Assembly (NCBI GenBank): GCA_963739305.1
Contig: CAVTZU010000028.1
Coordinates: 1-64,000 of the forward strand
Origin: Candidatus Bathyarchaeota archaeon
GTDB lineage: Archaea > Thermoproteota > Bathyarchaeia > Bathyarchaeales > Bathycorpusculaceae
Length of the DNA: 64,000 nucleotides
Direction of reading: 5' to 3'
Numbering within the stretch: the stretch's first letter is position 1; every line of letters begins with the position of its first letter. This document shows, one piece after another, positions 28,711 to 55,653 of the stretch. Both the position numbers and the translations under genes were made by a program. Below the pieces are notes generated by a model that made no database searches, was not told the origin of the DNA, and worked only from the letters and a program-made list of their open reading frames with translations.

Positions 28711-28831
28711 CTGGTTATGACAGGGAGATAGGAACGCTCGCGCTAAGAAAAATCGATTTAACGTTCTCTAGGGCGCGCTACGATGAAAGACTTATAGAAG
28801 TTCCCTGGAACGAAAGGTTCACAAAAGCACT

Positions 28832-28981
28832 TCATGTCATATTAAGGTACATAGGAACAATCCCACCAGGAGGGCGCATCCACAGTCCCCTTGTATCAAT
28901 TAATATTATGAAAACAGCAACGGCAAGAAAGACTACAAAGGCGGATAAGGCAATTAAGAGTATTACGTCATTTCTTCTCAC
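28832..28981 (-). CDS. small single-TM protein (49 aa)
   Basis: GTG start, MRRNDVILLIALSAFVVFLAVAVFIILIDT... Confidence 0.4.
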   Translation of the reverse strand: MRRNDVILLIALSAFVVFLAVAVFIILIDTRGLWMRPPGGIVPMYLNMT

Positions 28982-29086
28982 GCTGGATTGATGTTCCCCT
29001 TCAAGTGTCGGATTTTCTCCGTCTGTCACGCCTGCTGCTCCCCGATTACACAATGAGTTCCACTCACTCTTTTCTTTTTCCATTCC

Positions 29087-29115
29087 TTGGGTTTGGGGGT
29101 AAAATTCTGTCCCAA
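29087..29115 (-). repeat. degenerate inverted copy of the GGATAAAACTTTACCCC element
   Basis: reverse complement TTGGGACAGAATTTTACCCCCAAACCCAA versus TTGGATAAAACTTTACCCCCAAACCCAA at 32887. Confidence 0.7.
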
Positions 29116-29164
29116 TTGTTCTGAAACATAGTCTTTTATCCATCTTCCAACCCCAGTCCAGTTT

Positions 29165-29719
29165 GTGTTGCTGGCATTTATAATTGGATTTGTTTTCACC
29201 TTCGTTTTTCTGAGATGGAAAAAGGCGTTTGGAAGACGAGCCTGGACAATGGCTATTGTTCTTTTCGTCGTGTTTTCTTTTTCTCTTGCTTACCTTTCTG
29301 TTTCGAGCGTTTGGACACCTCATGCATTGAGCGATGACGTTTTTTACCAGGAAGAACATGCACATGGCGAATTTGCGGGGTCGTTTCCATGGTCTGAACT
29401 TTCTTATCCACTTACTTTAGGAGTAGTTCATACTCCTTTCAAGCAATTGATATTCCAATACCCCAACGCTTATGGCGAAGTTCGTCTCGACGTATTTTTT
29501 GCAGACTCAAGTGTCGTCCGAATCAATGGCACATTTTGGTATTTCTACCCAGTTATGGGGCCCATGCCATTACAATACAAGATTGACTCCTTGTTCTCAG
29601 ACCCGTCACAGTTCTTTGGTTTTCTGATAGGTCTTTATGCTCTTGTCAACCTTATCGGAGCACTTCTGGGAATCATAATCTCAAAAACACTGTACAAAAG
29701 AGTCCACCTTCATCATTGA
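29165..29719 (+). CDS. hypothetical membrane protein, possibly 5'-truncated
   Basis: three hydrophobic segments, no recognised family. Confidence 0.55.
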   Translation: MLLAFIIGFVFTFVFLRWKKAFGRRAWTMAIVLFVVFSFSLAYLSVSSVWTPHALSDDVFYQEEHAHGEFAGSFPWSELSYPLTLGVVHTPFKQLIFQYPNAYGEVRLDVFFADSSVVRINGTFWYFYPVMGPMPLQYKIDSLFSDPSQFFGFLIGLYALVNLIGALLGIIISKTLYKRVHLHH

Positions 29720-29924
29720 ACTCTTTGTGTCCAAAACGTTTGAAAATCCAACAACAGGCCAATTCTTCTGGTTCGGCTATGACTTTCCAGCAATATGGAT
29801 GTATACTCGTTTCGTGTACTACCCCTTATATCCCCCCTCTTACTTCTTGTCTGCCTCTTTTCTTGCTGCTAAATACTGTTCCGTGAATACAGTATACATC
29901 ATGCCCTGCGGACACGATAACTTT

Positions 29925-29941
29925 GGATAAAACTTTACCCC
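29925..29941 (+). repeat. GGATAAAACTTTACCCC copy 1
   Basis: exact 17-mer also at 32889 and 35207. Confidence 0.92.
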
Positions 29942-32423: not shown

Positions 32424-32888
32424 AGTTAATGCGAAAACTATTACGGTAACTTATAAAAACCAATCGCGTTCCAGGCACGCTTAGCCGCTTCAATCTGCCT
32501 TTTCCTTTGATTTTTCCATGTTATTACACGATATTAATATAAGAGATTTTCAAAAGAAAAGTCACTTTCTACTCCTAAGTCAAACCAACTAGCAGTATTG
32601 GAACAGTCAGTATTTCCTTGAAAATCTCTATGTCTCGTTTTACGTTCTGAAATCTCAGTAGCGCGCGCTAAGGTGTACAGGGCGTATACTCGATTTCGAT
32701 AACATCTATCTATAGTAGATTCTGACATATCCTTCCTGTTCCATTAATGTCCATAGGTGTATCCTGAATCAGGTATCCAGTCTTTCGCCATCCATGAGGA
32801 AGCATGTGGATAGTTGTCCGTTAACCGTCGTCCGTCGCGGTCGCCGCCGTGGTTCGCGGTCGTCGTAGTCCGTCCGTCGTGGTTGGTT

Positions 32889-32905: not shown

Positions 32906-33030
32906 CAAACCCAAACCCAAAACCCACGGAACCGACAAAGACTAATAATGAGTTGTCCTACGCATCTAGTTGAGGCTTGTCGGTGAGCCTAGGCAGAAAA
33001 ATTTCAAACGCGCGCGCAGCTGTTGGTAGC

Positions 33031-33768
33031 ATGAACAGCAGAATTGTGTTGCTCACTTTGATCTCAACGTTCCTGTTGTTTGCATTGGTTGTGGCAGCAT
33101 CAGCTCAGACGAGGGTAGTAGGCGTTAGTGTGGGAAACAAGTTTAGGTATAGTTTCATCATTAGCTGGAGTTCAAACGACCCGAGTGCTACACCTCCGTC
33201 CTCCCTAATAGATAACAACAATACAGAATGGATGGAGATTTCCGTTACAGGCATTTCTGGCACAAACATAACAGGACAAACGATTCAACATTACAAGAAC
33301 GGGACCGAAACAACCACGGACGTCTGGATAGACTTATACACTGGACCTAGCGGGAATACGTTGCCCTATTTCATTTCAGCCAACCTAGCAGCAGGCGATT
33401 CTGCCTACACTTCGTCTCCATTCAATACTACTTGGATCATGAACGAGACCGTGCCTAGAACGTACATAAGCGGTGCAAGAGACACAAACCACATCAACGC
33501 AACGGCCTCGTATGAGACAGAAAGTTTCCCTACTAACATGTACTGGGACAAGTCGACAGGAGTCTTCGTTGAGTTAATGCAAGAAAACACAAATAAGACA
33601 GACGCATACACTGCAACTTCGTTATTCGACATCCAAATCATCAGTCCAGACCTCTGGACAATCCCCGAGTTTCCCGCATGGATCTCCGCACTGCTTATAC
33701 TCATCGCGCTCACGTCAGCCACAATGGTCATCGCTAGACAAAGACAACCCAAAAGACCCTTCCGCTAA
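33031..33768 (+). CDS. secreted surface protein with PEF-CTERM-like anchor
   Basis: signal peptide, VGVSVGN, many N-x-S/T sequons, YWDKSTG, C-terminal IPEFP + TM + basic tail. Confidence 0.8.
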   Translation: MNSRIVLLTLISTFLLFALVVAASAQTRVVGVSVGNKFRYSFIISWSSNDPSATPPSSLIDNNNTEWMEISVTGISGTNITGQTIQHYKNGTETTTDVWIDLYTGPSGNTLPYFISANLAAGDSAYTSSPFNTTWIMNETVPRTYISGARDTNHINATASYETESFPTNMYWDKSTGVFVELMQENTNKTDAYTATSLFDIQIISPDLWTIPEFPAWISALLILIALTSATMVIARQRQPKRPFR

Positions 33769-34005
33769 ACCTTCTTTCCACAGCGCGCGACCACCAATAG
33801 AACGCAAACACAAAATCAAATACAAATAACCCCTCTTTCCTTTTGTTCGAGATTATGCTTGACCATTATGTCGCGCTCGCATAACGCTCGCGCTCCAACC
33901 CTCAAAAACTGGAAACAACAACTAGAACGCGTTTATAATCTGAAGATAAAACCTTACCTCAACCAATCAAGTGATTTCTTTATAGGGCGAGTCTCTACTG
34001 ATTAC

Positions 34006-35343: not shown

Positions 35344-36648
35344 TTATGGTCCTTTCTTGGTGATTTCTTTCACGATGCCCGCGGCCACTGTTGTGCCCAT
35401 GTCCCGTACTGCGAAACGCCCAAGCTCTTCAAATTCCACGAAGGTTTCCATTGCAATTGGGTGAAGCGGTTCCATCTTTACGATAGCCGCGTCTCCCGTC
35501 TTCAGGAACGCAGGTTTCTCTTCGACGACTTGTCCTGTACGTGGGTCGATCTTTCTGATTAGCTCCGTGAATTTGCATGCGATTTGTCCTGTGTGGTAGT
35601 GCAACACTGGCGTGTATCCGGCTGCGACAGCCGTCGGGTGGTAGATTACGATTATCTGTCCGATGAACTCCTTGACTACCGTTGGTGGGCTCGACACGTG
35701 TCCGCATACGTCTCCGCGGTGAATGTCTGTTTTTGCGACTCCTCGAATGTTGAAACCGATGTTGTCGCCTGGTTCGGCCTTCGGGATTCTTTCATGGTGC
35801 ATTTCGAGCGATTTCACTTCGCCTTGTTTGTTCGAGGGCATGAAGATTACGATGTCGTTTTCTTTGATTATGCCAGTCTCAACTCTGCCAACTGGGACGG
35901 TACCTACTCCTGTGATGCTGTAGACATCTTGGATTGGTACCCGCAGCGGTTTGTTCGTGGGTTTTGACGGCACTTCAAACGTGTCCAGAGCTTCGATCAG
36001 TGTCGGTCCGATGTACCATGGCATCTTTTCGCTCTTCTTGACGAGGTTTTCGCCTGTCCAGCCTGAGGTTGGCACGAACGGAATCTTTTCGATCTTGAAG
36101 CCTACCATCTTTAGCATTCTGCTGACTTCGTTCTTGATTTCATTGTAGCGTTCTTGGCTGTAGTTGACGGAGACGTCGTCCATCTTGTTGACGGCGACGA
36201 CTAGTTGTCGTACTCCTAGTGTGAACGCGAGGAATGCGTGTTCTCTGGTTTGTCCGCCTGGTCCGATGCCTGCTTCGAATTCTCCTCTTCTAGCTGAGCA
36301 GAACAGGACGGCACCGTCAGCTTGGCTGGCGCCCGTGATCATGTTTTTTACGAAGTCTCTGTGACCGGGTGCGTCGATGACTGTGAAGTAGAATTTCTTG
36401 GTTTCGAACTTTAGGAATCGAAGGTCGATGGTTACTCCTCGTTCTCTTTCCTCTTTGAGGTTGTCGAGGACCCATGCAAACTTGAAGCTTTCTTTTCCTG
36501 CTGCCTTTGCTTCTTCTTCGAACTGCTTTATGGTTCTCTCGTCGACTGCTCCCGCAAGGTATAGCAGGTGTCCTGTGGTTGTGGATTTTCCGTGGTCAAC
36601 GTGACCCATGATGACGAGGTTTAGGTGTGGCTTTCCGACTTTGCTCAT
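35344..36648 (-). CDS. tuf: translation elongation factor EF-1 alpha
   Basis: [39 protein letters not shown]; ATG after SD GGAGGAG. Confidence 0.98.
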
Positions 36649-36874
36649 TTCTTCTCCTCCTATTTTCAATAATTTCCTCTAGATTTTAGTGATTTCGTTA
36701 ACACAACTGTTCGATCAGTTATTTTAAGTTTGCCGAGGTTAAAGGTCACTTTGCGTTATTGGATACAAATGGAAACATCGCTGATTCGCGCAGCAAACTT
36801 CCTTTGTTAAGTCTTCCGTTATGACGTCTTAACCGAGTAAAAACGACGATCGGCCATCGTTCTGGTCAGACTGA

Positions 36875-37357
36875 CTACATCATAAAACCATTTCTTGTGA
36901 GAACTATTGCAGTTCCTTTCCTCACAATCGTATTGCATGAAAATTCAACTCCGCCTATACTGAGAGCATCTTTGGTTGCTACGATCGCATGTGGATACCC
37001 TTCAATATGAAAAACGCCATTGACCTCAACCTCAGTTGGTTTGTGAAAGATTAGTTCGAAAATCTTTGCGTTATCACTTTTTCTTGTCAAGGTCATTTTC
37101 TTGATATCGTTCCCTTCCCGTTCCTCTTTGCCTTCGTAGTCCTTATGAATATGAACGAATGAGGTTGACTTGTACACTTTTCCCAACAAATCATTTTTGT
37201 CATCTCTTATTTCAACGTCTATCATAGGTTTAGAATCTGAGGCTCGCAACTCATATTTGAAAAGTTGCTTGTCTTTCCCATTGTCTCTGAAAACTATTGG
37301 TACGTCTACACCAATCAAGCGATTGCTTCCAAAAAGAACGGTAATCAATGATTTCAC
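36875..37357 (-). CDS. hypothetical protein
   Basis: 160-aa ORF with upstream BRE/TATA-like repeat. Confidence 0.7.
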   Translation of the reverse strand: MKSLITVLFGSNRLIGVDVPIVFRDNGKDKQLFKYELRASDSKPMIDVEIRDDKNDLLGKVYKSTSFVHIHKDYEGKEEREGNDIKKMTLTRKSDNAKIFELIFHKPTEVEVNGVFHIEGYPHAIVATKDALSIGGVEFSCNTIVRKGTAIVLTRNGFMM

Positions 37358-37377
37358 CGAGAGTTACTATTCTCTTT

Positions 37378-37415
37378 GTTCAGCTATAACTTTTCCGCAA
37401 AACCAGAAACTGACT
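37378..37415 (-). promoter_or_regulatory. 38-bp direct repeat copy 1 (BRE/TATA-like GCGGAAAAGTTATA on - strand)
   Basis: 34/38 identical to 37849-37886. Confidence 0.7.
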
Positions 37416-37456
37416 AAGAACCGATAAAAAAGTTGTCTATTGGGGTTGTTCTTAGC

Positions 37457-37801
37457 TTATGCAACGGTATTCCATATTGACTGCGTAATAGGCGTGTGGT
37501 GGTCTTTTATTTTGTGCCATTCTGTCATAAGCTCCTTGATCTCTTTGTGCTCGAAAATTCTCTTCTCCCACTTCTTCATGTCTTCCATGCTTTTGAATTC
37601 ACACATTTCAACGTATGTGCCAGCTACTCCACCGTATTCTTGCTCGAAAATTCGCCACGATATCAGTCCTTCAAAAACCTTCGAGTCTGCCTTCATAATT
37701 TTTCGGAATTTTTTCATCAAAGCCTGAAATTCTGCTCGCTTTCCATCTTTGATCCCGCATGTTAAAACAAAGACGATACCCATATTTCTGTTCACCTCCA
37801 C
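37457..37801 (-). CDS. ABM/NIPSNAP-like dimeric alpha-beta barrel protein
   Basis: IKDGKRAEF...TYVEMCEFKSMEDMKKWE pattern. Confidence 0.6.
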   Translation of the reverse strand: MEVNRNMGIVFVLTCGIKDGKRAEFQALMKKFRKIMKADSKVFEGLISWRIFEQEYGGVAGTYVEMCEFKSMEDMKKWEKRIFEHKEIKELMTEWHKIKDHHTPITQSIWNTVA

Positions 37802-37848
37802 ATCTTGCTATTCGTTCACGCTAGGTCAAACTCTAAGTATATTGTCTG

Positions 37849-37886
37849 GTTCACCTATAGCTTTTCCGCAAAACCAAAAACTGGCT
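37849..37886 (-). promoter_or_regulatory. 38-bp direct repeat copy 2
   Basis: GTTCACCTATAGCTTTTCCGCAAAACCAAAAACTGGCT. Confidence 0.7.
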
Positions 37887-38048
37887 TGAAAACATTCCTA
37901 GAGGAGTCTTTTACCGTTTTTCGGGTTTGTGTTTTTCTCTTATTCTTTTTTGGTGTAGTTCCATCGTATGCTTTCTTGGCAATTCTTTCTCGCACACCGT
38001 CAGAGATTTGAGACAAATTCTTAAGGCGTATAAGGCTCTTATTCAAAC

Positions 38049-39620: not shown

Positions 39621-39728
39621 AACATAAGTACTATTCTTAAAGAAAATCGCGTATGCCTAAGACTATTTCACGTTCAAAGTCTGCCCAAAGGTTTTATTTC
39701 TCTAATGACAGTCTAATGAATGGTTTGA

Positions 39729-40541: not shown

Positions 40542-40653
40542 AAGCGGGCATGCTTTCATGTTCATTTTTACTTAGGTCTCTCTCAGTTTGCTTAATGTCG
40601 TTTCGGGAAAGGTCTTTTATCTGAAAATCGGGGCAGGTTTCATTGTGGGCTTG

Positions 40654-40857: not shown

Positions 40858-40950
40858 TATTTACTGCGCGCAAAACAGGCCCAAACTGTGCCAGAACAGC
40901 GGTATTCTGCCAAGTTTTCTGGTTACGAAGCGTTCTTGAGCTTACCTACC

Positions 40951-42590: not shown

Positions 42591-42675
42591 AGGCGCGCAC
42601 GAGATGATGGGCTTTAAACCTTTCGCAAAATCGATATTGTTAAGTTATTTGTGGCGCGCGCAAAAATTAGAAAAG

Positions 42676-44310: not shown

Positions 44311-44445
44311 AGTTTACAAGTTTATTGTTTCACTTTCTTGTCAATTTAAATCTTAGTGAACAGTGCGCGCTTAGAATGTGCTAAAACGATGGTTATTCTA
44401 CGTATCGGAGAGAAATTGCGCGCGCGACTTGCTGCCACTCCGCAT

Positions 44446-46848: not shown

Positions 46849-46999
46849 TCCTTCCCTTAAAGACTTCCAGAAGTTTCTCTTTTGAGTCGAGCTCGTTGTT
46901 TTCCCAGAGCCTTTTCAGCCCAGCTAAAACGTTGGCGGAGACTCTTTCCGCTTCAATCTTCCTGAGGAATTGCTCCAAGACCTCTTGTTCAATGCCCAA
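46829..46999 (-). CDS. 56-aa helical protein overlapping the ATPase start
   Basis: MGIEQEVLEQFLRKIEAERVSANVLAGLKRLWENNELDSKEKLLEVFKGRNENAQH*; not in the ORF track. Confidence 0.65.
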   Translation of the reverse strand: MGIEQEVLEQFLRKIEAERVSANVLAGLKRLWENNELDSKEKLLEVFKGRNENAQH

Positions 47000-47688
47000 A
47001 TCATCACACCATTATCGTGTTTTCGGTTGCGACAGACAGAGTTCAACTATTTCTTTTATCTTCTATTAGGATTTTTGGTTTAACGTGCTTCTCGGAGATA
47101 TCGCAAAGCGCAGTGCGTGCGCCTAAACCCCTAAAAATGAGCGCAAACCCTACGATCTATTTTTCTTAACAGAACAGCGCGCCGCAATCTTCAATTACCA
47201 TGCTTTTCACATTTGTTCGCACTTGATGTTACAATAGTGGACAAACGATCATTTCGGCGCCGATATACCGCGCGTGATACAAACGTTCAGTTTTCATTCA
47301 ATAACACTTATCTATCTGTGTACGACGGCACCTCTTTAAGGGGGGTATGGAGGTGAAAACGGACGAAATCCAAGTACAGGAAACTTTTGCCAAGTGAAGT
47401 TTACGTCGGTGTATCTGGCAGAACTGGACTTCCATATGGTAGAGTCAAATGGTCCAGGAAAAGACGATAGACTGCTTCATCGCTTTTGCCCAAACGGAGT
47501 GTTTCGCGCACTGAAGGCAACACGCGCTGGTGGATGCAAGCGCTACAAGTTTTCTGCAGATGAGTGCACAGAAATCTTAAATTTCCAAGGCAACAGAAGA
47601 CAAACGAGAGGTCCAGGTTGAGTAAAAGGAGAATGATTTGTGGAGATTTAGCCATTGTAGGAATAGTAGCAATGGGACAAGCGGTAAT

Positions 47689-48651
47689 ATGGAAAGCAAG
47701 ACAATCGCAGCTAGCCTCTTTTCTCTATTCTTAGTTCTCAGCCTGGTTTGCTCTTGTTCGGCTCAGAACGAAACTAACACAGCCCACGTATCGGACAAAG
47801 CAGTTTCATTTGTTCTTTCAAACTTCAATTCGACAATAGGCTTATGTTCTGAAGTCCCACACGGGACGCCAAACAGCCAGAATTTCAATGGCGACGTTTT
47901 CTGGATAACAAGCGATAACCTTCTAGCATATGCACTTCTGCAACAGTATAACGCATCAGTGGCCAACACCATACTGCAAACCATGAAAGCCTATGCAGCA
48001 GCTCATACCGACTTGCCAACAGATAGTCGGGGAATTCCCGTAAGCTATAAGCATGAACCCATCATAAACGATTCTTTTCCAGATGACTTTCAACCAAGAG
48101 GATACGTCTATTGCGACCTAACTTTAACTGACTCGTATGAAGTCAAAATTGAAGTGAATAACGGTTCGATCTGGCCAGACTGGCAAAACTATTCTGACGA
48201 ACTGGCATGGATGGGTTTGAGCTGTCTTAACAAAGGGGGCGCGCTCTATTATTCTCAGGCGCAGACACTCTATTATCAGATGATGAGTATGTGGGATGGC
48301 AAAGGATTCAATGACACACAATATCGCCATCTTGGATATTACGAAACATTCAAGCTAGGTCTAGCCATTTACCTAAGAAAAGACTTGGGCCTAAATCAAA
48401 CACAAGCAGAACAGGAGATGGATTCAATTATCCAACTATGCAAGAAAGAAAACGGTGGAATCTGCGTCAACTACAACGACAATTTAGACACTTGGGGAAA
48501 TCCAAATACAGAAACCACCGCATTAATTGGATTAGCTTACACCGAAGTGACTAACCCAATTCCAGAGTTTCCATCATTCCTAATTCTGCCACTATTCATG
48601 ATAGCAACGCTTCTAGCAATCACAGTCTGCAAGAGAAGACGTGTGACCTGA
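47689..48651 (+). CDS. secreted protein with PEF-CTERM-like anchor
   Basis: signal peptide, sequons, C-terminal PIPEFP + TM + KRRR. Confidence 0.8.
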   Translation: MESKTIAASLFSLFLVLSLVCSCSAQNETNTAHVSDKAVSFVLSNFNSTIGLCSEVPHGTPNSQNFNGDVFWITSDNLLAYALLQQYNASVANTILQTMKAYAAAHTDLPTDSRGIPVSYKHEPIINDSFPDDFQPRGYVYCDLTLTDSYEVKIEVNNGSIWPDWQNYSDELAWMGLSCLNKGGALYYSQAQTLYYQMMSMWDGKGFNDTQYRHLGYYETFKLGLAIYLRKDLGLNQTQAEQEMDSIIQLCKKENGGICVNYNDNLDTWGNPNTETTALIGLAYTEVTNPIPEFPSFLILPLFMIATLLAITVCKRRRVT

Positions 48652-49024
48652 GCGAGCCCGATTTGAAAGCAAGCGTCGATATAGAAGGCTGCTCCGCTAG
48701 AGAGATGCACATTCAGAAGACGCCAGAAAACGAAAAATGTTGAACTTTCCAGAGCCAAATAGCGCCGCAGTCCGAAACTCTCTCACCACGACGATACTTT
48801 TTGTGGTGCTTGATCGCGAGTCAACCGTTATGAAACTATTTGCTGAGGTTGAGAACGAACTAACCACTACTGAATCTCTTGTAACACTCGAAAATTGTTC
48901 AACTTTTTACGACCCAATAGCAGCGCAGTTCTGCCTAGGTTCCGAGCTTCCGTACTCTTTACGACCAAGTCACGTAGAACAAACGATTTTTGATTTGATT
49001 TGGCTTTGCTTAACTACCTCCTCC

Positions 49025-49213
49025 GAGAAGCCACGGCTTCTCTCGGAAGTCAAACGACGTTCGTCTTCTACATGATTCCTACCGAGTGGTATGTGGGGAG
49101 TAGCCCTTTCAGAGCTGCCCAGGCTAGGCAGACGACGATGGAAAAGCGAGTTCTCGATCTGAAAAAATGAGGCATCTTCGCTATTACCTCTTACCGAGAA
49201 GTTCGAACTTCTC
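49025..49213. repeat. pair of GAGAAG-N6-CTTCTC palindromes (49025-49042, 49196-49213)
   Basis: GAGAAGCCACGGCTTCTC and GAGAAGTTCGAACTTCTC, both preceded by CC and followed by TCGGA. Confidence 0.88.
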
Positions 49214-49253
49214 TCGGAGCTAAATTGGGATCGAGGTGCAAAAAAAGAGATTC

Positions 49254-50378
49254 TTAAGCCTCGTTTGAGAGCAAGAGTTTTCCAGAGGGCAACGTGGCTA
49301 CGTAGCGAAAGCCTTCTTCTAATTTCTGCCCAAGTTCTGACTCTTTGACGATGACTTGGCATTTTCCGCTTCCAGGCGGGCACTGTTCTGGGTTCTTCTT
49401 GACTTTCTGCCTGAGCATTTGTAATTCTTGCATCCGTTTGAGAACGTCTTCGGGCAAGCGTTTTTTCAACTCTTCGATCTCTTTGGCTCTCTTGTCGAGA
49501 TCGATGTTCCGTGTAAAGCACGTTAGTTCTTGGACTTTCGCGTAGTCGGTCCTTAGAGAGTCCACCGAGACGTATGCGCTCTCGCTCGTGACTTTGCCGA
49601 CGATAAGCTTGAATTTCTCTGTGCTCATAACCGATGCGAGACGGTCGATTAGGAATTTCCTTAGTGCGTGAAACCTTATCCGCTTATCACCTGTCGCTAG
49701 TCCAGCTTTCTTTACCAAACGCTTGACGACGCGTGAAAGCATGATTTCTGAGCTATAATCTAGCATTTGGTCTGACTGCGAAGTTTTCGCTTCGCGCGCG
49801 AGTTTTTCGAGCATCTGCTTAACGATTGGAACCGCGTCGTAATCGAGAAATGGATATGCTTTGACGGATTCTTTTCCCGTGTTCAGGGGGCCTATTCCGA
49901 TCGGTGCTTCGCGCGAGAGGTACGGCTCGAAGTCGCCTCGACGCAGCTTTAAGAAATCTGACGGACGCAGGCCGAGACTCTTGCCGACTCTGATGATATA
50001 CTTCTCTGGCAAGTCGCCTACGTCGTCTAGTTTCCGTAAGTCTTCTGTCGAAAACCTGTAATCTTCTTGCGCGTTGTGCGTTTCTCCGAGCCGTTTTGTC
50101 TCAGTTCGCCTAAATTGCAGTTGAGTTCTGTGGTAGCTAAAGAAACTCCGAGCAGCCGTTATTATGACTCTCGCTGAGTTCGGTGTTAAGCCGCTGTCCA
50201 GTAAGGCCTGTTTGCAAGCCATGACTTTTCGTTCCCAAGCGTACTTTACTTGGTCGTCGGTCGAGCTAACTGACTGCTTGCGATCTGCTAAGATTTCGTC
50301 GCCTGTCATCTTGACGAATCTTAAGAAATGGATAAACGCTTCTGAGTAAGTTCGACTCGTAGACTTTTTCTGAGCCAC
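49254..50378 (-). mobile_element. tyrosine recombinase / integrase
   Basis: LGLRPSDF (R), RFHALRKF (HxxR), IVGK..SAYV (Y); N-terminal core-binding domain; frame stays open to ACG 50435. Confidence 0.88.
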
Positions 50379-50494
50379 TAGCCATTCGTTCGTCGCGTTA
50401 TCGTTTGGGTATGATATTCTTTCTTTGTTTCTCGTCTTCTAACTTCCTTAAGAAGACTAAAGGCACTGCCTCTCGTATAGATTTCCGACAAATT

Positions 50495-50522
50495 AGGTTA
50501 GAAATTTTAAGATTTCTAACAT
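50495..50522. promoter_or_regulatory. 11-6-11 inverted repeat upstream of the integrase
   Basis: AGGTTAGAAAT-TTTAAG-ATTTCTAACAT, arms 10/11. Confidence 0.6.
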
Positions 50523-50670
50523 ACAAAGTCGGTTTGCTTTGTAGCTGCGCCGTAAGAAAAGTTGACTCGCGCGCGCGAATGAGTAGGATTTTGAGTTTAT
50601 GTTTTCATATTTTTTCCTGTCCTGCATTTTAAAATATGCGCACAAACATCTATTCTAGTGGGAAACTACC

Positions 50671-51573
50671 ATGCCCATAAACGAACTTGACCTCCTTCTA
50701 ACTTACAAATGCAACCTAGAATGCGATCACTGCTTTGTCTTCGGCAGCCCAAATGCAAGAGGGGTAATGAAAATTGCTGGCATACGAGAAATACTGAAGG
50801 AAGCAAAAAAGATCAGGAGCATTGACTGGATATACATTGAAGGTGGCGAACCTGTTCTTTACTATCCAATTCTCTTGTGGGCGTTGCGTGAAGCAAAGAA
50901 GCAGGGGTTCAAGACTGGCTTTATTACGAATGCTTATTGGGCAACGTCGATTGAAGACGCAAAAGAATGGCTGAAACCTATTTCAGAAATAGGCATATCG
51001 GACGTGATAATAAGCGATGATCTCTTCCATTACGGCAAGGAAGAAGAAAGCCTTTCCAAATATGCTTTTCAAGCAGCTAAAGAGTTAGCGGTGCCTGCTA
51101 GTAACATCAGTATAGAGCAACCCAAAGAATATATGGCTGGGAAAGAATGGAAAGGGAAGCCTGTCACAGAAGGGGCTGTGCTATTCAAAGGAAGACCTGC
51201 TGAAAAACTCGTCGAAGGCTTGCCGAGGAGACCGTGGCAAGAATTTGACAAGTGCTTAGACGAGGATTTCTCCAACCAGAAGCGGGTGCACATCGACCCG
51301 TTTGGTTATGTTCACCTGTGTCAAGGCATAACCATGGGAAACATGAAGAAGACCCCGCTTCACCGATTGTTTGAACAGTTCGACCCACACAAGCACCCTA
51401 TATGTGAACCAATTCTAAATGGAGGCCCAGCTGAACTTGTCAGAACATACCATGTTGATCACGAAGAAGGCTACGTGGACGAATGCCACCTATGCTATTC
51501 AACCCGGCTGAAACTGCGAAAGATATTTCCACAGATTCTTGCACCAGACCAGATGTACGGAGTCTTCACTTAG
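50671..51573 (+). CDS. radical SAM protein
   Basis: TYKCNLECDHC, GGEP, ITNAYWA, DECHLCY. Confidence 0.9.
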   Translation: MPINELDLLLTYKCNLECDHCFVFGSPNARGVMKIAGIREILKEAKKIRSIDWIYIEGGEPVLYYPILLWALREAKKQGFKTGFITNAYWATSIEDAKEWLKPISEIGISDVIISDDLFHYGKEEESLSKYAFQAAKELAVPASNISIEQPKEYMAGKEWKGKPVTEGAVLFKGRPAEKLVEGLPRRPWQEFDKCLDEDFSNQKRVHIDPFGYVHLCQGITMGNMKKTPLHRLFEQFDPHKHPICEPILNGGPAELVRTYHVDHEEGYVDECHLCYSTRLKLRKIFPQILAPDQMYGVFT

Positions 51574-51594
51574 AGCACGCGCAGAAAAAAGGAA

Positions 51595-52446
51595 TCATGG
51601 GTAGTGCTGGTTGAAGTGGCCGGCTAGGATGATGGCATCGTAGATGTCGATTGTGTTGTCACCGTTGATGTCGGCGTTGACATTCCAATGCAAATTGCCC
51701 ACGTGGGTGTTGAAACCTCCTGCAAGCGTTATCGCGTCATAAATATCCACGGTGAAGTCGCCATTCACGTCGCCTGGCATGGTCAAGACCATGGAGGTGC
51801 CAGCTGTCAGATTGCCTGCAAGTGCCCCTATGTTGCAGTTGCCATAGGCAAAGCCTGTGGTGTTCCAAATGAATTGGACGGTTGCGGAGTTGTCAGTTGC
51901 TAAGGTAACGTTTTGTGATCCTAGGATAGTTGTGTTAGCGTAGGCTGTGACGTTGAAGGTCTCACTTTGGTTGCCCATGTTCATGAGCATTACGTTCACA
52001 GGCAGTTGACAACCTTGACCAACAACATTCTTAGATGGCGCAACGCTCATCACAGCGCTCGCGCTGCACAGGCTGCCATTTATCCAATCTAGGAAATAGG
52101 TTTGTGAATGCTCATCAAAACTAATCGTTCCGTTGATTACAACCATGTTCCCGACAACAAACCCTTCGGGAAATGTGCATCCCAGTTGCCCATTAAAAGT
52201 CAAAAACATAAAAGAACCACATGGATTCGGGTCAAGGCTTGGGTCAATGCTGTCTACAATTATGCCAGCGTAGACCGCGCTCACATTAGCGTAGCTTAAA
52301 GTACCGACCACGGTGTAAGTCGCCACAGTCGCGCGTGCGCGCGCACCCCCTAGGCAGGCTACTAAAATGATACAGATTATTCCAAGCGCGATAAGGACGC
52401 CTTTGCTGGCGATTTTCGTTTCTTTTGTTTCATTCACGTTTGACAT
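51595..52446 (-). CDS. secreted CARDB + dockerin-like protein, apparently chimeric
   Basis: ETFNVTAYAN..WNTTG (CARDB); GDVNGDFTVDIYD..ADINGDNTIDIYD (dockerin repeats). Confidence 0.8.
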   Translation of the reverse strand: MSNVNETKETKIASKGVLIALGIICIILVACLGGARARATVATYTVVGTLSYANVSAVYAGIIVDSIDPSLDPNPCGSFMFLTFNGQLGCTFPEGFVVGNMVVINGTISFDEHSQTYFLDWINGSLCSASAVMSVAPSKNVVGQGCQLPVNVMLMNMGNQSETFNVTAYANTTILGSQNVTLATDNSATVQFIWNTTGFAYGNCNIGALAGNLTAGTSMVLTMPGDVNGDFTVDIYDAITLAGGFNTHVGNLHWNVNADINGDNTIDIYDAIILAGHFNQHYP

Positions 52447-52546
52447 CCTACCATAGCAGTGTCCAGTGTAAGATATAAGTCCGCGCGCCCTACTGGCGAC
52501 ACGCAGAAATAACGGGTTGATACAGAATAGTCCTGCGATGATGTGA

Positions 52547-52717
52547 ATGGTGGATTATGTAAACGGGAGCGCTAATGACAACTGGTACTGGTGCAAGAAC
52601 TGGACTCAATACACCACGTACATCTACGAACAGCTATCAGGAACGCGACGTCCACCAAAGTTACACCTTTGCCCTCAATGCAAAGCAAAGGAAGACAACA
52701 AAGACTGCACAACATAG
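52547..52717 (+). CDS. 56-aa Cys/Trp small protein
   Basis: MVDYV..DNWYWCKNWTQY..LCPQCKAKEDNKDCTT*; not in the ORF track. Confidence 0.55.
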   Translation: MVDYVNGSANDNWYWCKNWTQYTTYIYEQLSGTRRPPKLHLCPQCKAKEDNKDCTT

Positions 52718-52898
52718 CGCATGCTCGCGCCTACTCATATCCGTTTATTCAGTCGCTGACGGCGCTCAACCACCCACAGCGCACGCTCAAAGATGTTCAA
52801 AAAACGATTTGAGGCATAAAATTGCTAAATGTCGCATGCGCTAACACGTTGAAAACTAATCGCGAAACTGGGGGTTTCTAGCGAAGGTCGATAGGTTT

Positions 52899-53142
52899 GT
52901 GGGAATAATACTAGTGAATACGGAGAACAAAGTTCTTCTGCAACTTAGGTCAAAGGATGACTATCTTTATCCAGATTGCTGGACCTTGCCTGGCGGGAGG
53001 GTTGAGGAGGGTGAAATTCTTGAACAGGCCATTGTCAGGGAAGTGAAGGAGGAGTTGGGGTGGGATCTTCGCGGATGCGGTCTTTTCAGGACTATTGTTT
53101 TAAACGATTCCGATGGGATCATGGAGCGCCATAAGCGCGCGC
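52899..53142 (+). pseudogene. truncated Nudix hydrolase
   Basis: VLLQLR, WTLPGGRVEEGEILEQAIVREVKEELG; similarity ends at a (GC)4 tract. Confidence 0.8.
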
Positions 53143-53217
53143 AAATTCCAAGATCAGGCAGGCATCCTGTTGCCCCGCTTCGTAGAGAACTGGGAAAACG
53201 GGGCAAGCCCTGCTCGA

Positions 53218-55281
53218 TCATGCAATTTGCAACGTAAAACGTTCAATTTGCCGAGCACAGTCTGATGGGTTCTCCACGGTTATCATTTCTTTCTGGAAAT
53301 AACCCGGCAACAGACGTTTTACGTAGTGCTGAATGGCTCGATCATCCAGAATCACGATGTATCCTTTATCTTCCGCAGATCTGTGGACACGCCCGCAGGC
53401 CTGAACCAGTCGAAGTATTGCCGGGGTTAGATAAGCATAGGTTCTCCCATTTCCTGGAAACTGTTGTTCAAGATAATCTACCAGTGATTCCTGGTAAGCA
53501 TCCCACGTTGCATAGGGCAACCCGACAGCGACAACTCCTTTCAACACGTTGTGTGGGTAGTCCATTCCCTCGCTCAGTTTGCCACCCATCACCCCGTAAA
53601 GAACGCTGTTGTTTGAGCGTGTTAGCTTCTGGATCACATCATTTCGCCTAGTGTCCTGCTCTTCCATGATTATTGCCCTGTTCGTCTCTATTGAAGAGGC
53701 AACCCTTCGCATCAATTGATAACTCGTGAAGAAAACCGCCAGGTTACCCTGAGTAGAGTCCGATATGGCTTCAATATATTTCTTCCATTTGTCAAGCATT
53801 TGGTCAGTTCTTCTCTTGAACTCTGACGACACGTCCTTGGCTACCATTATGAGCCTGTTCTTTCGTGGAAAAGGAGGATCAAACTCTTTCAAACAAGTTT
53901 GGTTTGCCTTGTATAGCATTAAATCTCTATAGACGTCGGGAGGTGACAAGAAACCGCTCATGAGAATGGTTCCTCGTGCTTCCCTCAAGACGAGATCGAC
54001 GATTTCTCTTCCGTCGAAACTTCGGACTTCTAGCGTAACTTGGTCTTTCTGGCCTCTTTCGATCAGATGGAAGTATTCTGATCCAACGTTCTTGAAGAAG
54101 CTCTCCATGAACGTGCCGATTCGAAAATTGTAGCTCGCGATCCTCGTTGAACCAGATTTAAGCTGCTTCTGTTTGACACTTTCTCCATACTCTTGAAGCA
54201 TCGCAGCGGCTTCCAGGCCTGAGACACCATTGTGAGCTAGAAACAAGTCATTGATCTCTTGAGGGTTAAGTCGCTTGAGCTCTTCATTTCTCAAAGTTTG
54301 ACGGGCGTGCCTAAAAATGTCCTCCATCACAAGGTTCAGAAGTTCTCTGACCGAACCTACCGACTCATGCTCGAAGATTTCAGTCTCCTTAACGGCTCGT
54401 TCCACGAAGCTCATCGTCAACTTGTCGGAAAGAAGCTCTCTGGCAAAAGTTGGAAGATTGTGCGCTTCATCGACAATCAGGAAAACTTTCGAAAAGCCAG
54501 ATCCGAAACCCTTCATAATCGTCTCCCTGATCTTGGGATCAAAAACGTAGTGATACGTCCCAAGAAAAACATTCACTCTCGGCAGAACCCTCTTGAGGGC
54601 TTCGTGAGGGCAGAACCCGCGTTCAGACATCACGTCAACGGATTCCTCTGGCGCAAGAATTCTTCGGGCGCATTCAAGAGCCAATTCTTCCGCCTCTCTT
54701 TTGCCCTTCACAAGGTTCATGTAGAATCTGCAGAAGGGCTTGGTCGACGACTCGCAGTTATCCTTCAGCCTCTTGCACTCTTCAAAAAAGTCTACATAAG
54801 ATAAGTCGCCCCGAGCGTTCATGGGACACATGTCCTGTTTGCTGAAGAATGAGATTGCTGAAATGTTTCTCGAGAGCGCTTTCAACTCCTTGAGGTATAT
54901 GTGCAATTGACTTCTGGTTCTGAAGCAGATCACAAGTCTGTTTTCTTCGAGCTGAGGCAGAACGGCAAGCAGGGATGCGAGCGATTTGCCTACGCCACAA
55001 GGAGCACTACCGAAGAAAACCTCTCTATTTTTCAGCGCCTCGGTTGCTGCTTGAACAAACTCCATCTGTTCTTTACGAGCTTCATAGTTCTCAGGGAGAA
55101 GTTTTCCTTTCTGGCTCGTCCCTTTCGCCTTTTGGCGAACAGTTTTGGGAAGCTCAGAAACCCTGTTTGCAGATATCAGATAAGTGCCACAGTCACTGCA
55201 AAAACGGTTACTTTCATACTCTTCTGAAGAATAGGTTCGGCCACAAGTGTGGCAAGCATAGTTTCGGGGCAAGCTTTTCAA
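53218..55281 (-). CDS. XPD/Rad3/DinG-family Fe-S helicase with N-terminal Zn ribbon
   Basis: CHTC..CSDC, APCGVGKS, Fe-S Cys, DEAHN, SEGMDY, QACGRVHR. Confidence 0.9.
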   Translation of the reverse strand: MKSLPRNYACHTCGRTYSSEEYESNRFCSDCGTYLISANRVSELPKTVRQKAKGTSQKGKLLPENYEARKEQMEFVQAATEALKNREVFFGSAPCGVGKSLASLLAVLPQLEENRLVICFRTRSQLHIYLKELKALSRNISAISFFSKQDMCPMNARGDLSYVDFFEECKRLKDNCESSTKPFCRFYMNLVKGKREAEELALECARRILAPEESVDVMSERGFCPHEALKRVLPRVNVFLGTYHYVFDPKIRETIMKGFGSGFSKVFLIVDEAHNLPTFARELLSDKLTMSFVERAVKETEIFEHESVGSVRELLNLVMEDIFRHARQTLRNEELKRLNPQEINDLFLAHNGVSGLEAAAMLQEYGESVKQKQLKSGSTRIASYNFRIGTFMESFFKNVGSEYFHLIERGQKDQVTLEVRSFDGREIVDLVLREARGTILMSGFLSPPDVYRDLMLYKANQTCLKEFDPPFPRKNRLIMVAKDVSSEFKRRTDQMLDKWKKYIEAISDSTQGNLAVFFTSYQLMRRVASSIETNRAIIMEEQDTRRNDVIQKLTRSNNSVLYGVMGGKLSEGMDYPHNVLKGVVAVGLPYATWDAYQESLVDYLEQQFPGNGRTYAYLTPAILRLVQACGRVHRSAEDKGYIVILDDRAIQHYVKRLLPGYFQKEMITVENPSDCARQIERFTLQIA

Positions 55282-55386
55282 AGCAAACTAGGCTTCAGAC
55301 CAGCAACATATACTTTGTTGGCATGGTAAACGCAAAAACGCGAGGAACACGCGCTGTACGGGTTCCTTTTTGAGTTTCAGTCCTGC

Positions 55387-55653
55387 TCAAGTGCGCGCTC
55401 CGGATTGCAGATCTTTGGTTGATGTCGCCCCGTCTTTCCGCCAGAGCTTTCTGAACCCTTCTTCCTGCTCTGGTGTAATCTTGAACCCGAGTTTTTCTTC
55501 CAGAAAAATTCCTACTAGGCGAACTGCAAAATAGGCTTCAGCCGAGTTATTTGTCCTCTTCTGTAACAGATCCAGAACCTTCTTTGACACTCGCAAGCAT
55601 TTCTGTATATCAACCGGAACTTTGGCAGAAGTCTCTGTCTTTTTTGCGCACAT
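55387..55653 (-). CDS. hypothetical protein
   Basis: 88-aa ORF; last codons formed by GCGCGC. Confidence 0.55.
   Translation of the reverse strand: MCAKKTETSAKVPVDIQKCLRVSKKVLDLLQKRTNNSAEAYFAVRLVGIFLEEKLGFKITPEQEEGFRKLWRKDGATSTKDLQSGART

Follow-up and report, generated by a model that had tools for sequence, protein, structure and literature searches.

Short alternating-GC tracts coincide with rearrangement junctions in variable islands of a Bathyarchaeia genome

Genes and tracts of the locus

The window, by which we mean the whole 64-kb stretch of DNA analysed, carries between 28.8 and 55.4 kb a series of gene-sized segments interspersed with short alternating G/C tracts and set among conserved backbone genes (Table 1). 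The M42 peptidase and methyltransferase genes keep their adjacency and order in genomes G001, G008, G005 and G009, and the tract at 28773 lies at the left end of 6.6 kb absent from G001 and G008, in which about 190 nt, free of tracts, separate the methyltransferase and EF-1alpha genes. For the segment that follows this tract, none of the five same-genus genomes searched had a match at the corresponding place. The EF-1alpha gene, although inside the span of the preliminary description, belongs to the conserved backbone and is no cassette; each of the five genomes searched has it at this backbone position, with 82-84% nucleotide identity. Between EF-1alpha and the DRG GTPase, G001 and G008 have 1.76 kb without tracts, G005 has 4.2 kb and four tracts, and G009 has about 6 kb and six tracts.

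Table 1. Coordinates of features in the 64-kb window.
Feature	Position	Strand	Remarks	Basis
M42 peptidase	26899-27990	-	conserved backbone	Pfam
Methyltransferase	28144-28710	+	conserved backbone	Pfam
Tract GCGCGC	28773..28778		63 nt past methyltransferase stop	
Extra segment	28779..32660		small ORFs; B12-binding radical SAM gene 30582-32423 (-)	Pfam
Tract TAGCGCGCGCTA	32661..32668		full consensus	
Unit	33009..33789	+	ORF 32977-33768; tracts 33009-33017, 33783-33789	
ORF	33859-34233	+	10-nt tract 34240-34249 begins 7 nt after	
DUF4234 membrane-protein gene	34305-35102	-	tract 35168-35174, 66 nt upstream of start	Pfam
EF-1alpha	35344..36669	-	backbone	Pfam
EF-1alpha to DRG GTPase interval	36733..55767		about 19 kb	
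N6/N4 DNA methylase fused to Mrr-like nuclease	38049..39620	+	in low-GC part of island	Pfam, NCBIfam
Tract GCGCGC	40866..40871			
LAGLIDADG ORF	42676-43197	-	unit 42593..43385; single copy in genome	
LAGLIDADG tracts	42593-42598; 42654-42661; 43380-43385		second 15 nt past stop; third 183 nt upstream	
Unit	43400..44426	-	ORF 43400-43675 (DUF5655); ORF 43876-44310 (faint nuclease-like match); tracts 43778-43783, 44365-44370, 44418-44426	
AAA_15/SMC-like ATPase gene	44446-46848	-	flanked by tracts 44418-44426 and 47177-47182	
ORF	47638-48651		contains tract 48239	
Divergent integrase-like ORF	49254..50378	-	internal CGCGCG tracts 49793-49800, 49910-49915	
Radical-SAM unit	50568..51582	+	tract 50568-50577, about 94 nt upstream region, ORF 50671-51573	
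Degenerate tract GCACGCGCAG			immediately past stop of radical-SAM ORF	
Dockerin-domain protein gene	51595-52446	-	unit 51595..52488; 5'-side tracts 52330-52335, 52337-52344, 52482-52488	
NUDIX ORF, truncated	52899-53237	+	runs into tract 53135	
XPD/Rad3 helicase unit	52899..55398	-	ORF 53218-55281; tracts 53135-53142 (76 nt past stop), 55393-55398 (112 nt upstream)	
Conserved backbone	55800..58042		DRG-type GTPase (+), ribosomal proteins S7 and S12 (-)	Pfam
Confirmed GCGCGC positions	28773, 32661, 33010, 33783, 34240, 35169, 40866, 42593, 42654, 43380, 44365, 44418, 47177, 48239, 49794, 50569, 52337, 52483, 53135, 55393			
Tracts outside 28773-55398	4567, 7990, 13718, 27027, 62136			

Several of the units have relatives whose similarity stops at a tract. 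One foreign metagenome contig, about 95% identical, ceases to match at the tract on the ATPase side (44426), and the match of a foreign contig in another record ends at the edge of the XPD unit (55399). In the dockerin region, a foreign contig carries a tract-length variant at the joint 52330>52344, and an 86% match in G009 begins at 52483. The XPD gene has another location in all five genomes searched and also in loci L001-L006. The ORF at 32977-33768, called a PEF protein in the preliminary description, has no family match, and its homologue (L018), which lies elsewhere in G001 (863235-863966, 78% nucleotide identity), likewise has a tract on the 5' side. Copies of the radical-SAM unit, 89-93% identical at the nucleotide level, occur in unrelated contexts: about 15 flank contexts were found among 20 copies, with at least 15 contexts other than that of the window, whose own flanks were present in none of 80 metagenome loci. 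Homology ends on the left at the tract (50562-50570) in eight loci from six contexts, and a tract lies 6-31 nt past the stop codon in eight radical-SAM loci.

All 20 GCGCGC positions listed in the preliminary description were found again; it had overlooked 13718 and the tracts in CGCGCG phase at 7990, 43778, 47269, 49910 and 52330. Defined as maximal alternating G/C runs of at least 6 nt, the tracts of the window number 29, with 24 in 28773-55398 and five outside, and overlapping GCGCGC matches number 33 against 10.9 +/- 4.3 expected, a count that none of 100 shuffles attained. The reported contrast in density with the rest of the window is genuine; the 24 tracts place the span in about the top 2% of 304 same-size genome windows (95th percentile 20, maximum 34). 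Most tracts are indeed intergenic, those at 48239, 49793 and 49910 lying within long ORFs. Their lengths had been put at 6-16 nt; the longest single tracts measure 10 nt (34240-34249 and 50568-50577), and about 16 nt is attained only by the compound CGCGCG-t-GCGCGCGC at 52330-52344.

Sequence, abundance and placement of the tracts

The consensus of the tracts is TA-GCGCGCGC-TA, i.e. TA(GC)4TA, with an even-length G...C core that is mostly GCGCGCGC. Among 295 maximal 8-mers, the flanking bases are T at +1 (0.52) and A at +2 (0.49), and no bases are conserved beyond 2 nt on either side. In this peat archaeon and some of its relatives the GCGCGCGC palindrome is present in hundreds of copies; it is the octamer with the highest count in the 2.3 Mb genome (359 sites against about 23 expected, or 718 against 46 over both strands), and between genes it occurs 139 times against 15 for CGCGCGCG. 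GCGCGC is likewise the most over-represented hexamer. Tract lengths peak at 8 nt and stop at 10 nt, and the ratio of 8-, 9- and 10-nt tracts (0.59:0.34:0.06) is that expected of an even G...C core with random neighbours. In aligned DNA the tracts remain stable and erode through point substitutions, also in copies sharing the same context, and 193 allele comparisons revealed no change in length by GC units and no clean gain or loss of a 6-10 nt tract. Tracts do not lengthen by slippage, and the proposal that they grow through repeated insertion is not borne out. Nor do they form a local array around a recombinase, as had been suggested: the genome holds 899 tracts in 29 islands, and the motif is carried by all ten same-genus Bathyarchaeia genomes and, in a patchy distribution that includes several other families, by 14 of the 151 sampled genomes of the class.

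With gene calls from a crude longest-ORF caller, tract density is 13.1 per 10 kb in intergenic and 2.0 in coding DNA, a 6.4-fold difference. Tract-bearing spacers are clustered: 124 pairs of them are adjacent, where permutations give 56.3 +/- 6.3. Tracts lie at a median distance of 91 nt from the start codon and 29 nt from the stop codon; they avoid the last 30 nt ahead of start codons and are frequent shortly past stop codons. In a comparison with 400 kb of G001, tracts were found in 2 of 85 conserved-adjacent spacers but in 28 of 183 spacers at edges of synteny; counted in G001, the corresponding figures were 4/85 and 32/132, with 43/135 for spacers lacking an ortholog on either side. None of the six tract-bearing conserved spacers is common to both genomes. 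Tracts are therefore scarce in conserved spacers, without positional conservation between species, and the preliminary description's alternative of equal frequency in core spacers does not hold.

These features recall the highly iterated palindrome HIP1 (GCGATCGC) of cyanobacteria (PMC5861425; PMC4390886), which is described as enriched in both coding and non-coding DNA at conserved positions (PMC5861425) and linked to orphan methyltransferases (PMC5861425; PMC4390886). The tracts share with HIP1 an octameric GC-rich palindrome that is lineage-specific and over-represented tens of times. A HIP1-like compositional drive, in which a methylation-linked repair bias would enrich the palindrome without any role in rearrangement, is nevertheless scarcely credible here: the tetramer GCGC is not enriched (ratio 1.02), the C5 methyltransferase family PF00145 was not found in G000 or in eight of ten same-genus genomes, and, unlike HIP1, the tracts are for the most part kept out of coding DNA and of conserved spacers, are not conserved in position and lie at rearrangement junctions.

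Junctions of inserted, replaced and deleted segments

Junctions of insertions, replacements and deletions coincide with tracts in metagenome assemblies, from which all sequences compared here derive. Three of nine chained strain-level events are tract-bounded: a 4198-bp insertion in C2 has TAGCGCGCGC at both sides where the empty site in C3 has a single copy, C13 and C17 differ by a replaced stretch that has a tract at each end, and the third is C6/C9. Three of the remaining events are bounded by a different dispersed repeat, one is tRNA-linked and two have no repeat, indicating that general recombination at any short repeat also operates. Of the 274 internal homology ends among 85 fetched loci, 40 fall within 3 nt of a tract (14.6%, against 3.4% of random non-ORF positions), and a junction lies within 5 nt of a tract in 12 of 18 indel rows; these counts are not independent, as alleles are paired and one unit is counted in several loci. 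In two cases a deleted gene is replaced by a tract. At L089 a rhomboid gene is reduced to its ATG and four codons, followed by CGCGCGCG and the downstream DNA, whereas at L094 the gene is intact and the tract absent; at L116 a tract stands in place of 2607 nt present in L073, the cut falling inside a 655-aa ORF. The direction of such events was taken from gene integrity rather than from an outgroup.

We favour, with some reserve, the explanation that the tracts represent a single palindrome, specific to the lineage and hyper-abundant, which marks the seams of variable-genome segments, with breakage and joining in or beside them. A segment would typically comprise one gene or two together with the upstream region belonging to them, and would be gained, lost or exchanged by breakage and rejoining in or beside a tract. 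The span from 28.8 to 55.4 kb is one of the 29 tract-dense islands, and about 26 kb of segments would have been inserted here into the conserved methyltransferase / EF-1alpha / DRG-S7-S12 backbone. As a conjecture, a lineage-specific break-and-join reaction would leave a self-complementary GC seam behind or use one again. If joining left (GC)3-5 at the new junction, or required it there, this would explain tracts exactly at sites of gene deletion; if tracts already present were reused as crossover points, an insertion with the tract duplicated around it would be accounted for. Among the observations that count against this explanation, besides the six strain-level events without tract boundaries, 28 of the 38 internal homology ends in the source assembly lie away from tracts (10 within 20 nt), about 80% of those in the 85 loci lie more than 10 nt away, and a 5.4 kb difference at 58.1-63.5 kb of the window has edges without a tract.

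It is quite improbable that the tracts are an ordinary intergenic signal, such as a protein-binding site, terminator, insulator or Z-DNA former, with which breakpoints coincide through a shared intergenic location or passive repeat recombination. Such a signal would account for the placement of tracts relative to starts and stops, for junctions at another dispersed repeat and for the excess of perfect GCGCGCGC copies over any single one-mismatch variant (359 against at most 78), but it fits poorly with the near-absence of tracts from conserved-order spacers, the point-mutation decay of copies in the same context, the enrichment of junctions over random non-ORF positions and the deletion scars inside genes.

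Candidate enzymes and known systems

The preliminary description had seen a cassette array, with the recombinase at 49.3-50.4 kb as a candidate enzyme. Its delimitation of gene-sized units that vary between strains and genomes holds, with breakpoints in or adjoining tracts and a cargo of surface, defence and metabolic genes. The cassette-like reading is partly supported by the tract-bounded events, the units in many contexts and the tracts at deletions; the notion of a fixed crossover site is not supported, as it does not predict tracts arising at deletion junctions inside genes. The local integrase-like ORF was rejected as the joining enzyme: its Phage_integrase match is below threshold (23 bits, cut-off 27.1), it had no NCBIfam or PDB sequence match, and used as a query it was not found in five of ten same-genus genomes, all five of which carry tracts.

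A dedicated integron-like system, in which a recombinase would read TA(GC)4TA, excise a one-tract circle and reinsert it at another tract, is unlikely in our estimation. It would accommodate the single tract between neighbouring units, the duplicated tract around the C2 insertion, the C13/C17 swap, the 12-bp palindrome defined by the flanks, the recurrence of one unit in many contexts and a patchy spread over the class like that of a transferable determinant. Against it, searches yielded no integron integrase (best 34.9 bits, cut-off 265), no attC-like site fitting the tracts and no serine recombinase, and genera free of tracts have similar numbers of tyrosine recombinases. Tyrosine recombinase sites known so far are longer than a tract with its 2-nt flanks, where conservation ends, and some units have a tract at one end only (indel events 1, 2 and 5). 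An attC site measures 57-141 bp, whereas the separator here has 6-10 bp and two semi-conserved bases per side, without attC-like structure. Bacterial and archaeal integrons, consisting of an IntI integrase and attC-bounded gene cassettes (Ghaly et al., 2022, PMC9668308), resemble the tract islands in their runs of single-gene units, palindromic separator, accessory cargo and units that recur in many contexts with their boundary at the separator. They differ from the tract units, which include an upstream region of their own, occur in either orientation and are spread over 29 dispersed islands instead of one array beside intI, and whose tracts are also found at deletion junctions within genes.

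That the tracts are excision footprints or targets of a TA-targeting cut-and-paste element, with TA as target duplication and GCGC/GCGC as terminal remnants, is very unlikely. The TA flanks, even length, G...C phase and intergenic location would agree with such an element, as would tracts exactly at the site of a missing segment (indel events 16 and 18). However, the missing segments lack GC termini and are cut inside genes, no clean tract insertion or deletion was seen among the 193 comparisons, G000 has no DDE_3 (IS630) transposase, TnpB zinc-ribbon domain (PF07282) or Y1 transposase, no high-copy IS family was found, and DDE_Tnp_1 is weakly enriched (8/14 tract-rich genomes against 48/137 others). 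REP/REPIN elements, which have RAYT transposases, are likewise short intergenic palindromes in hundreds of copies; the tracts differ from them in the missing Y1 transposase, in a motif of at most 12 bp, too short for a hairpin, and in bounding genes instead of spreading alone.

To return to break-and-join at GC seams, tracts at the seams of inserted, deleted and swapped gene-sized pieces point to an undescribed mode of gene reshuffling. End-joining filler known to us has no constant sequence, whereas tract filler is always (GC)n. The two are alike in placing nucleotides absent from both parents at deletion or insertion junctions, and G000 encodes LigD Prim-Pol, Ku and a ligase-phosphoesterase in one complete operon. 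Ku, however, was detected in only 3 of 14 tract-rich genomes and in 31 of 137 others. Terminal transferase activity is described for the LigD polymerase of this pathway (PMC8656161; see also PMC4797286).

Z-DNA-forming (GC)n is unstable, and type II topoisomerases cleave runs of alternating purines and pyrimidines; the likeness lies in alternating GC runs as break-prone sites. These processes would leave the origin of the tracts, their fixed 8-bp size and their TA flanks unexplained, and type IIA topoisomerase occurs in one of 151 genomes of the class.

A GC palindrome concentrated between genes

Our analysis showed that the window contains 29 tracts, defined as maximal runs of alternating G and C that are 6 nt or longer. 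Twenty-four of them lie within 28773-55398, a span that the preliminary description had read as a (GC)n-delimited cassette array around a tyrosine recombinase, and five lie outside it. Every GCGCGC position given in that description is present in the sequence; a site at 13718 and the tracts in CGCGCG phase had been overlooked, and the longest single tract in the window is 10 nt rather than the 16 nt proposed as the upper end of a 6-16 nt range. GCGCGC has 33 overlapping matches in the window against 10.9 +/- 4.3 expected, a count reached by 0 of 100 shuffles. Its placement is mostly intergenic, as had been described: long ORFs contain three tracts of the span (48239, 49793 and 49910), and the others are found between ORFs or at ORF edges. 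Scanning the window for Rfam families and tRNAs gave no match.

The same excess is seen throughout the source assembly (2.317 Mb, 36 contigs, 97% complete, 7.8% contamination), of which the window is C28:1-64000. Under first-order and maximal-order Markov models alike, no hexamer of the assembly is more over-represented than GCGCGC. The genome contains 899 tracts, at 13.1 per 10 kb of intergenic and 2.0 per 10 kb of coding DNA as divided by a crude longest-ORF caller (2278 ORFs, 83% coding). Its commonest octamer is GCGCGCGC, present at 359 sites where about 23 would be expected (718 against 46 when both strands are counted). The phase is fixed in intergenic DNA (GCGCGCGC 139, CGCGCGCG 15), and intergenic tract lengths have their mode at 8 nt (154 tracts) and fall to 2 tracts at 11 nt. 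The first flanking base of 295 maximal 8-mers is T in 52% and the second A in 49%, which gives the consensus TA(GC)4TA; the flanks of 6-mer tracts are random, and no conservation was detected beyond 2 nt of the tract around 506 intergenic tracts and the 295 8-mer cores. The 8-, 9- and CG-phase 10-mers occur in a ratio of 0.59:0.34:0.06, matching the expectation for an even G...C core with random neighbours, and transitions are about twofold enriched among one-mismatch variants of the motif.

Spacers bearing tracts cluster along the genome (124 adjacent pairs against 56.3 +/- 6.3 in 2000 permutations), and 29 tract-dense islands span 21% of it. Genes with tracts on both sides (n = 124) have a GC content of 0.465 against 0.478, and the median distance to the nearest tract is 91 nt upstream of start codons and 29 nt downstream of stop codons. 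The gene families enriched in the islands are ABC ATPases, SSB-like OB-fold proteins and ZIP transporters, and recombinases are not among them. The sequence TAGCGCGCGCTA occurs 29 times in the source genome (reversed control, 0) and is present in 8/10 same-genus and 0/10 other-genus genomes, and AGCGCGCGCT is found in all ten same-genus genomes at 7-114 copies each. When the class was sampled, 14 of 151 genomes, from at least five families, proved tract-rich (at least 10 copies, control at most 5), including all five members of one family and five of the seven of another. A full-text literature search found no published description of the motif.

Tracts and the variable genome

Tracts are not equally frequent in core intergenic DNA. 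In a comparison of the source genome with the first 400 kb of the same-genus genome G001 (197 reciprocal best hits, mean 70% amino-acid identity), a tract was present in 2/85 spacers between orthologues adjacent in both genomes against 28/183 at synteny edges on the source side, and on the G001 side in 4/85 conserved spacers, 32/132 edge spacers and 43/135 spacers without an orthologue on either side. Since conserved spacers are short, the contrast is weaker per base (3.3 against 9.6 per 10 kb in the source genome, 9.3 against 27.3 in G001). In what is a small sample, 0/6 tract-bearing conserved spacers are common to the two genomes.

The span proposed as an array is, by Pfam, a mixture of core and accessory genes (see table). 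DNA searches of five same-genus genomes identified a conserved backbone consisting of M42 peptidase, a methyltransferase, EF-1alpha and DRG GTPase-S7-S12, and compared with G001 and another genome of the genus, G008, the window has additional sequence in two segments, 28.7-35.3 kb and 36.7-55.8 kb. The G001 and G008 spacers that match these two segments have no tracts, whereas the interval between EF-1alpha and DRG measures 4.2 kb with four tracts in G005 and about 6 kb with six in G009, both also of the genus; the tracts thus arrive together with the additional sequence. No tract borders the third difference, which lies at 58.1-63.5 kb. The LAGLIDADG ORF and other island genes are single-copy in the genome. 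The XPD/Rad3 helicase, normally a housekeeping gene, stands in a neighbourhood that differs from those in the five same-genus genomes and in six loci from named relatives (L001-L006), and its homologues among named records all come from Candidatus Bathyarchaeia MAGs.

Many contig ends of the source assembly overlap other contigs at 95-99% identity, which indicates that strain variants were retained as separate contigs; these suit strain-level comparison, and genome-wide counts therefore include some duplicated DNA. The expectation that strain breakpoints fall in the tracts was borne out for a part of them: 10 of 38 internal homology ends within the assembly lie at most 20 nt from a tract, and three of the nine events obtained by homology chaining are tract-bounded, the remainder lying elsewhere. 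Contig C2 has a 4198-bp insertion with TAGCGCGCGC at both sides, laid out internally as tract, gene, tract, gene, tract, and the empty site in C3 has a single copy. Between C13 and C17, 2.0 kb is replaced by 2.9 kb, with homology ending exactly at tracts on both sides in both alleles, and C6 and C9 differ by 774 bp, the right junction being inside a tract and the short allele also having one. The cargo of these events comprises cohesin/dockerin and SBP-dockerin proteins, two NosD-like beta-helix proteins, a STAND ATPase and a short-chain dehydrogenase; it includes no transposase. At another three events the boundaries are formed by a second dispersed repeat, with the core GGGGTAAAGTTTTATCC; one event adjoins a tRNA end and two are without a repeat.

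The 85 comparison loci have 274 internal homology ends, distinct but not independent, of which 40 (14.6%) lie at most 3 nt from a tract; the corresponding proportion is 3.4% when random non-ORF positions are taken and 1.1% when all positions are. Of 18 indels or replacements among these loci, 12 have one or both junctions no more than 5 nt from a tract. Comparison over 36501-56500 with foreign contigs (Logan contigs of small share, derived from other peat and sediment metagenomes) gave anecdotal breaks, among 32 of 2178 pieces, at tracts 44426 and 55399 and at the non-tract positions 47012 and 50610.

The radical-SAM unit is 91% identical to its counterpart in G005 and 90% to that in G001, against 74-84% for core genes. 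The gene itself keeps 89-93% nucleotide identity in genomes whose core genes are at 74-84% to the window, which suggests a recent horizontal spread of this single gene. Its best NCBIfam matches, to YydG-type epimerase and prokaryotic viperin, are far below cut-off. Twenty copies at 81% nucleotide identity or more have about 15 distinct flank contexts, and the window's neighbours were found beside its relatives at 0/80 metagenome loci. Homology to the window starts at 50562-50570, inside the tract, in eight loci representing six contexts, and in eight loci a tract lies 6-31 nt past the stop codon and is followed by unrelated DNA. About 94 nt of upstream DNA is conserved with the unit, and copies in the same context have the decayed tracts gcgcacgcg, gcgggcg and gcgtgcgcg.

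Origin of the tracts

The best-supported reading of these observations is that the variable genome is a mosaic on the scale of single genes, with TA(GC)4TA marking its seams. The events show three configurations: a tract at each end with one tract in the short allele; a tract at a single end; and a tract present in one allele at the precise point where the other allele has a segment that lacks tracts at its ends. Of this third configuration, two cases could be polarised. The rhomboid gene that is intact at locus L094 (Pfam, 104.6 bits) is reduced in L089 to the ATG and four codons, followed by CGCGCGCG and then by DNA found downstream of the gene; L073 has a 655-aa ORF, of which the 3' end alone is present in L116, immediately after the tract. 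The tract allele is the deletion derivative in both, and newly formed junctions can thus acquire a tract. Once present, tracts are stable: they are identical in 89/97 haplotig and 83/96 locus comparisons (4 and 2 of these merely alignment-shifted), the others differ by point substitutions or divergent flanks, and no clean insertion or deletion of a tract and no change in length by GC units was seen in the 97 and 96 comparisons. Together with the deletion junctions, this argues against a conserved regulatory site, against the lengthening by repeated insertion suggested in the preliminary description, and against a dinucleotide microsatellite driven by slippage, which would be expected to vary in unit number and for which the peak of lengths at 8 nt is likewise unsuitable. 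Of the candidate mechanisms, the one compatible with the largest number of configurations is a reaction by which a self-complementary GC stretch is left behind or reused.

Archaeal integrons share the bacterial structure of IntI and attC (PMC9668308). The tracts resemble them in that one unit, that of the radical SAM gene, occurs site-bounded in many contexts, and to this extent the integron-like reading of the span holds. It does not hold as a local array, the tracts being genome-wide and class-wide: an integron has one array beside intI, where here there are 29 islands. IntI was not found in the 97% complete source genome, where the highest TIGR02249 score is 34.9 bits and the cut-off 265. 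The attC sites are structured imperfect palindromes with conserved outer boxes, in contrast to tract flanks unconserved beyond 2 nt, and integron cassettes are promoterless and in one orientation, whereas the units here run both ways with a median of 91 nt upstream.

The motif is like cyanobacterial HIP1 in being a hyper-abundant octameric palindrome. HIP1 is enriched and keeps its positions in coding as well as non-coding DNA, and is linked to methyltransferases (PMC5861425; PMC4390886); the present motif is unlike it in its intergenic bias and in that none of the few tract-bearing conserved spacers is common to the source genome and G001. Of the methyltransferases, the C5 type (PF00145) was found neither in the source genome nor in 8/10 same-genus genomes. 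REP/RAYT systems have a Y1 (HUH) transposase and hairpin repeats of at least 20 nt, against 0 matches to PF01797 in the source genome and a motif of at most 12 nt.

End joining by Ku and LigD was considered as a source of the seams. The LigD polymerase has terminal transferase activity (PMC8656161), and Ku appeared genus-linked among 41 relatives. The link is gone in the class sample, where Ku is present in 34/151 genomes (3/14 tract-rich, 31/137 others), and this lead thus fails.

The integrase-like ORF at 49.3-50.4 kb had been put forward as a recombinase and a candidate enzyme. Motifs HALR and, later, AY can be seen by eye in its translation, and its match to Phage_integrase is below cut-off (23 bits against 27.1, profile positions 22-140 of 172), with no NCBIfam or PDB sequence match. 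Its closest same-genus relative is 30% identical, and this query did not find it in 5/10 same-genus genomes; we therefore rejected it as the general enzyme on account of its weak profile score and patchy occurrence within the genus. The number of tyrosine recombinases fails to separate tract-rich from tract-free genera (9-12 in larger same-genus genomes, up to 12 in tract-free genera), and gyrase is present in only 1/151 genomes. Profile searches of the source genome found no IS630 DDE_3, TnpB zinc-ribbon domain (PF07282) or serine recombinase/resolvase, nor is there a high-copy IS family. It has two DDE_Tnp_1 genes, and the association of this family with tracts is weak at best (8/14 tract-rich genomes against 48/137 others).

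It is possible, though we regard it as a tentative proposal with less than an even chance of being right, that several Bathyarchaeia lineages have an undescribed break-and-join pathway that heals or targets ends with self-complementary (GC)3-5, leaving TA(GC)4TA at every seam. Any two ends carrying such a stretch would be joinable, single genes with their own promoters would become portable modules, and each seam would keep the motif. Genes would in this way be captured, lost and shuffled by a new mechanism requiring neither an integron integrase nor a transposase. If a dedicated reaction does make the seams, it would represent a new route of genome plasticity in very abundant uncultured archaea of sediments and peat, and would account for the gene-by-gene exchange of their accessory genes (surface, defence, metabolic). 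The motif would serve as a simple searchable marker of recent rearrangement, and the scatter of tract-rich genomes over families offers a handle for an enzyme search by phylogenetic profiling. In contrast to HIP1, whose function is still open, the iterated palindrome here is measurably linked to structural variation.

Other elements of the window and genome

Positions of features in the window and, where a contig (C) is named, elsewhere in the source assembly
Feature	Position	Description	Basis
EF-1alpha	35344-36669	core gene	Pfam
XPD/Rad3 helicase	53218-55281	core gene	Pfam
B12-radical SAM enzyme	within 28773-55398	core gene	Pfam
Low-GC stretch of the span 28773-55398		methylase-Mrr fusion, LAGLIDADG ORF, SMC-like ATPase, weak integrase-like ORF	Pfam and composition
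Integrase-like ORF	49254-50378	candidate recombinase of the preliminary description	Phage_integrase, below cut-off
Radical-SAM unit	50569-51578	radical SAM gene
NUDIX ORF	52899-53237	profile positions 7-60 of 134 only
DUF5655 ORF	43400-43675
ORF upstream of DUF5655	43876-44310	faint Shedu-type nuclease match
74-nt direct repeats (GYTATAACTTTTCCGCAAAACC...)	37378-37451, 37849-37922	bracket ORF 37457-37801
Copy of the unit with 74-nt repeats	C20:93052-93496	97% identical
Palindrome TACCGAGAAGTTYGAACTTCTCTC	40947-40970, 41095-41118, 49023-49047, 49192-49218
Repeat with core GGGGTAAAGTTTTATCC	29925-29952, 32889-32916, 35207-35234	dispersed, intergenic
TATA-binding protein genes	C11:77950-79198 and paralogues	five paralogues, mean 76% identity
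End-joining operon	C32:50048-53119	LigD Prim-Pol, Ku, ATP-dependent ligase fused to 3'-phosphoesterase

The DUF5655 ORF and the nuclease-like ORF upstream of it look like one frameshifted defence-type gene, whose length their sum fits, and the tract at 43778 between 43.4 and 44.3 kb was for this reason not taken as evidence of a scar. The NUDIX ORF enters the tract at 53135-53142 and overlaps the 3' end of the XPD gene; covering only part of its profile, it is a truncated gene fragment. The end-joining operon, outside the window, is complete, of archaeal type, and lies between the AlaRS and LeuRS genes. Members of the SSB-like OB-fold family are found in three tract-dense islands, one of them adjoining a TATA-binding protein gene.

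The second dispersed repeat has arms TTTGGGTTTG and CAAACCCAAA around its core and 45 genome copies at up to 2 mismatches, against 0 for the reversed control; judged by its sequence, it is possibly a hairpin or a strong promoter. Short matches to the 74-nt repeat are dispersed across each of the five related genomes, and its edges are where many of the foreign contigs stop. The palindrome TACCGAGAAGTTYGAACTTCTCTC is confined to the window's island apart from one site with 4 mismatches on C29. Two of its copies are near-identical and in direct orientation, separated by 8.2 kb; the right-hand copy lies 40 nt from the integrase-like ORF, and this pair may represent the att sites of an integrated element.
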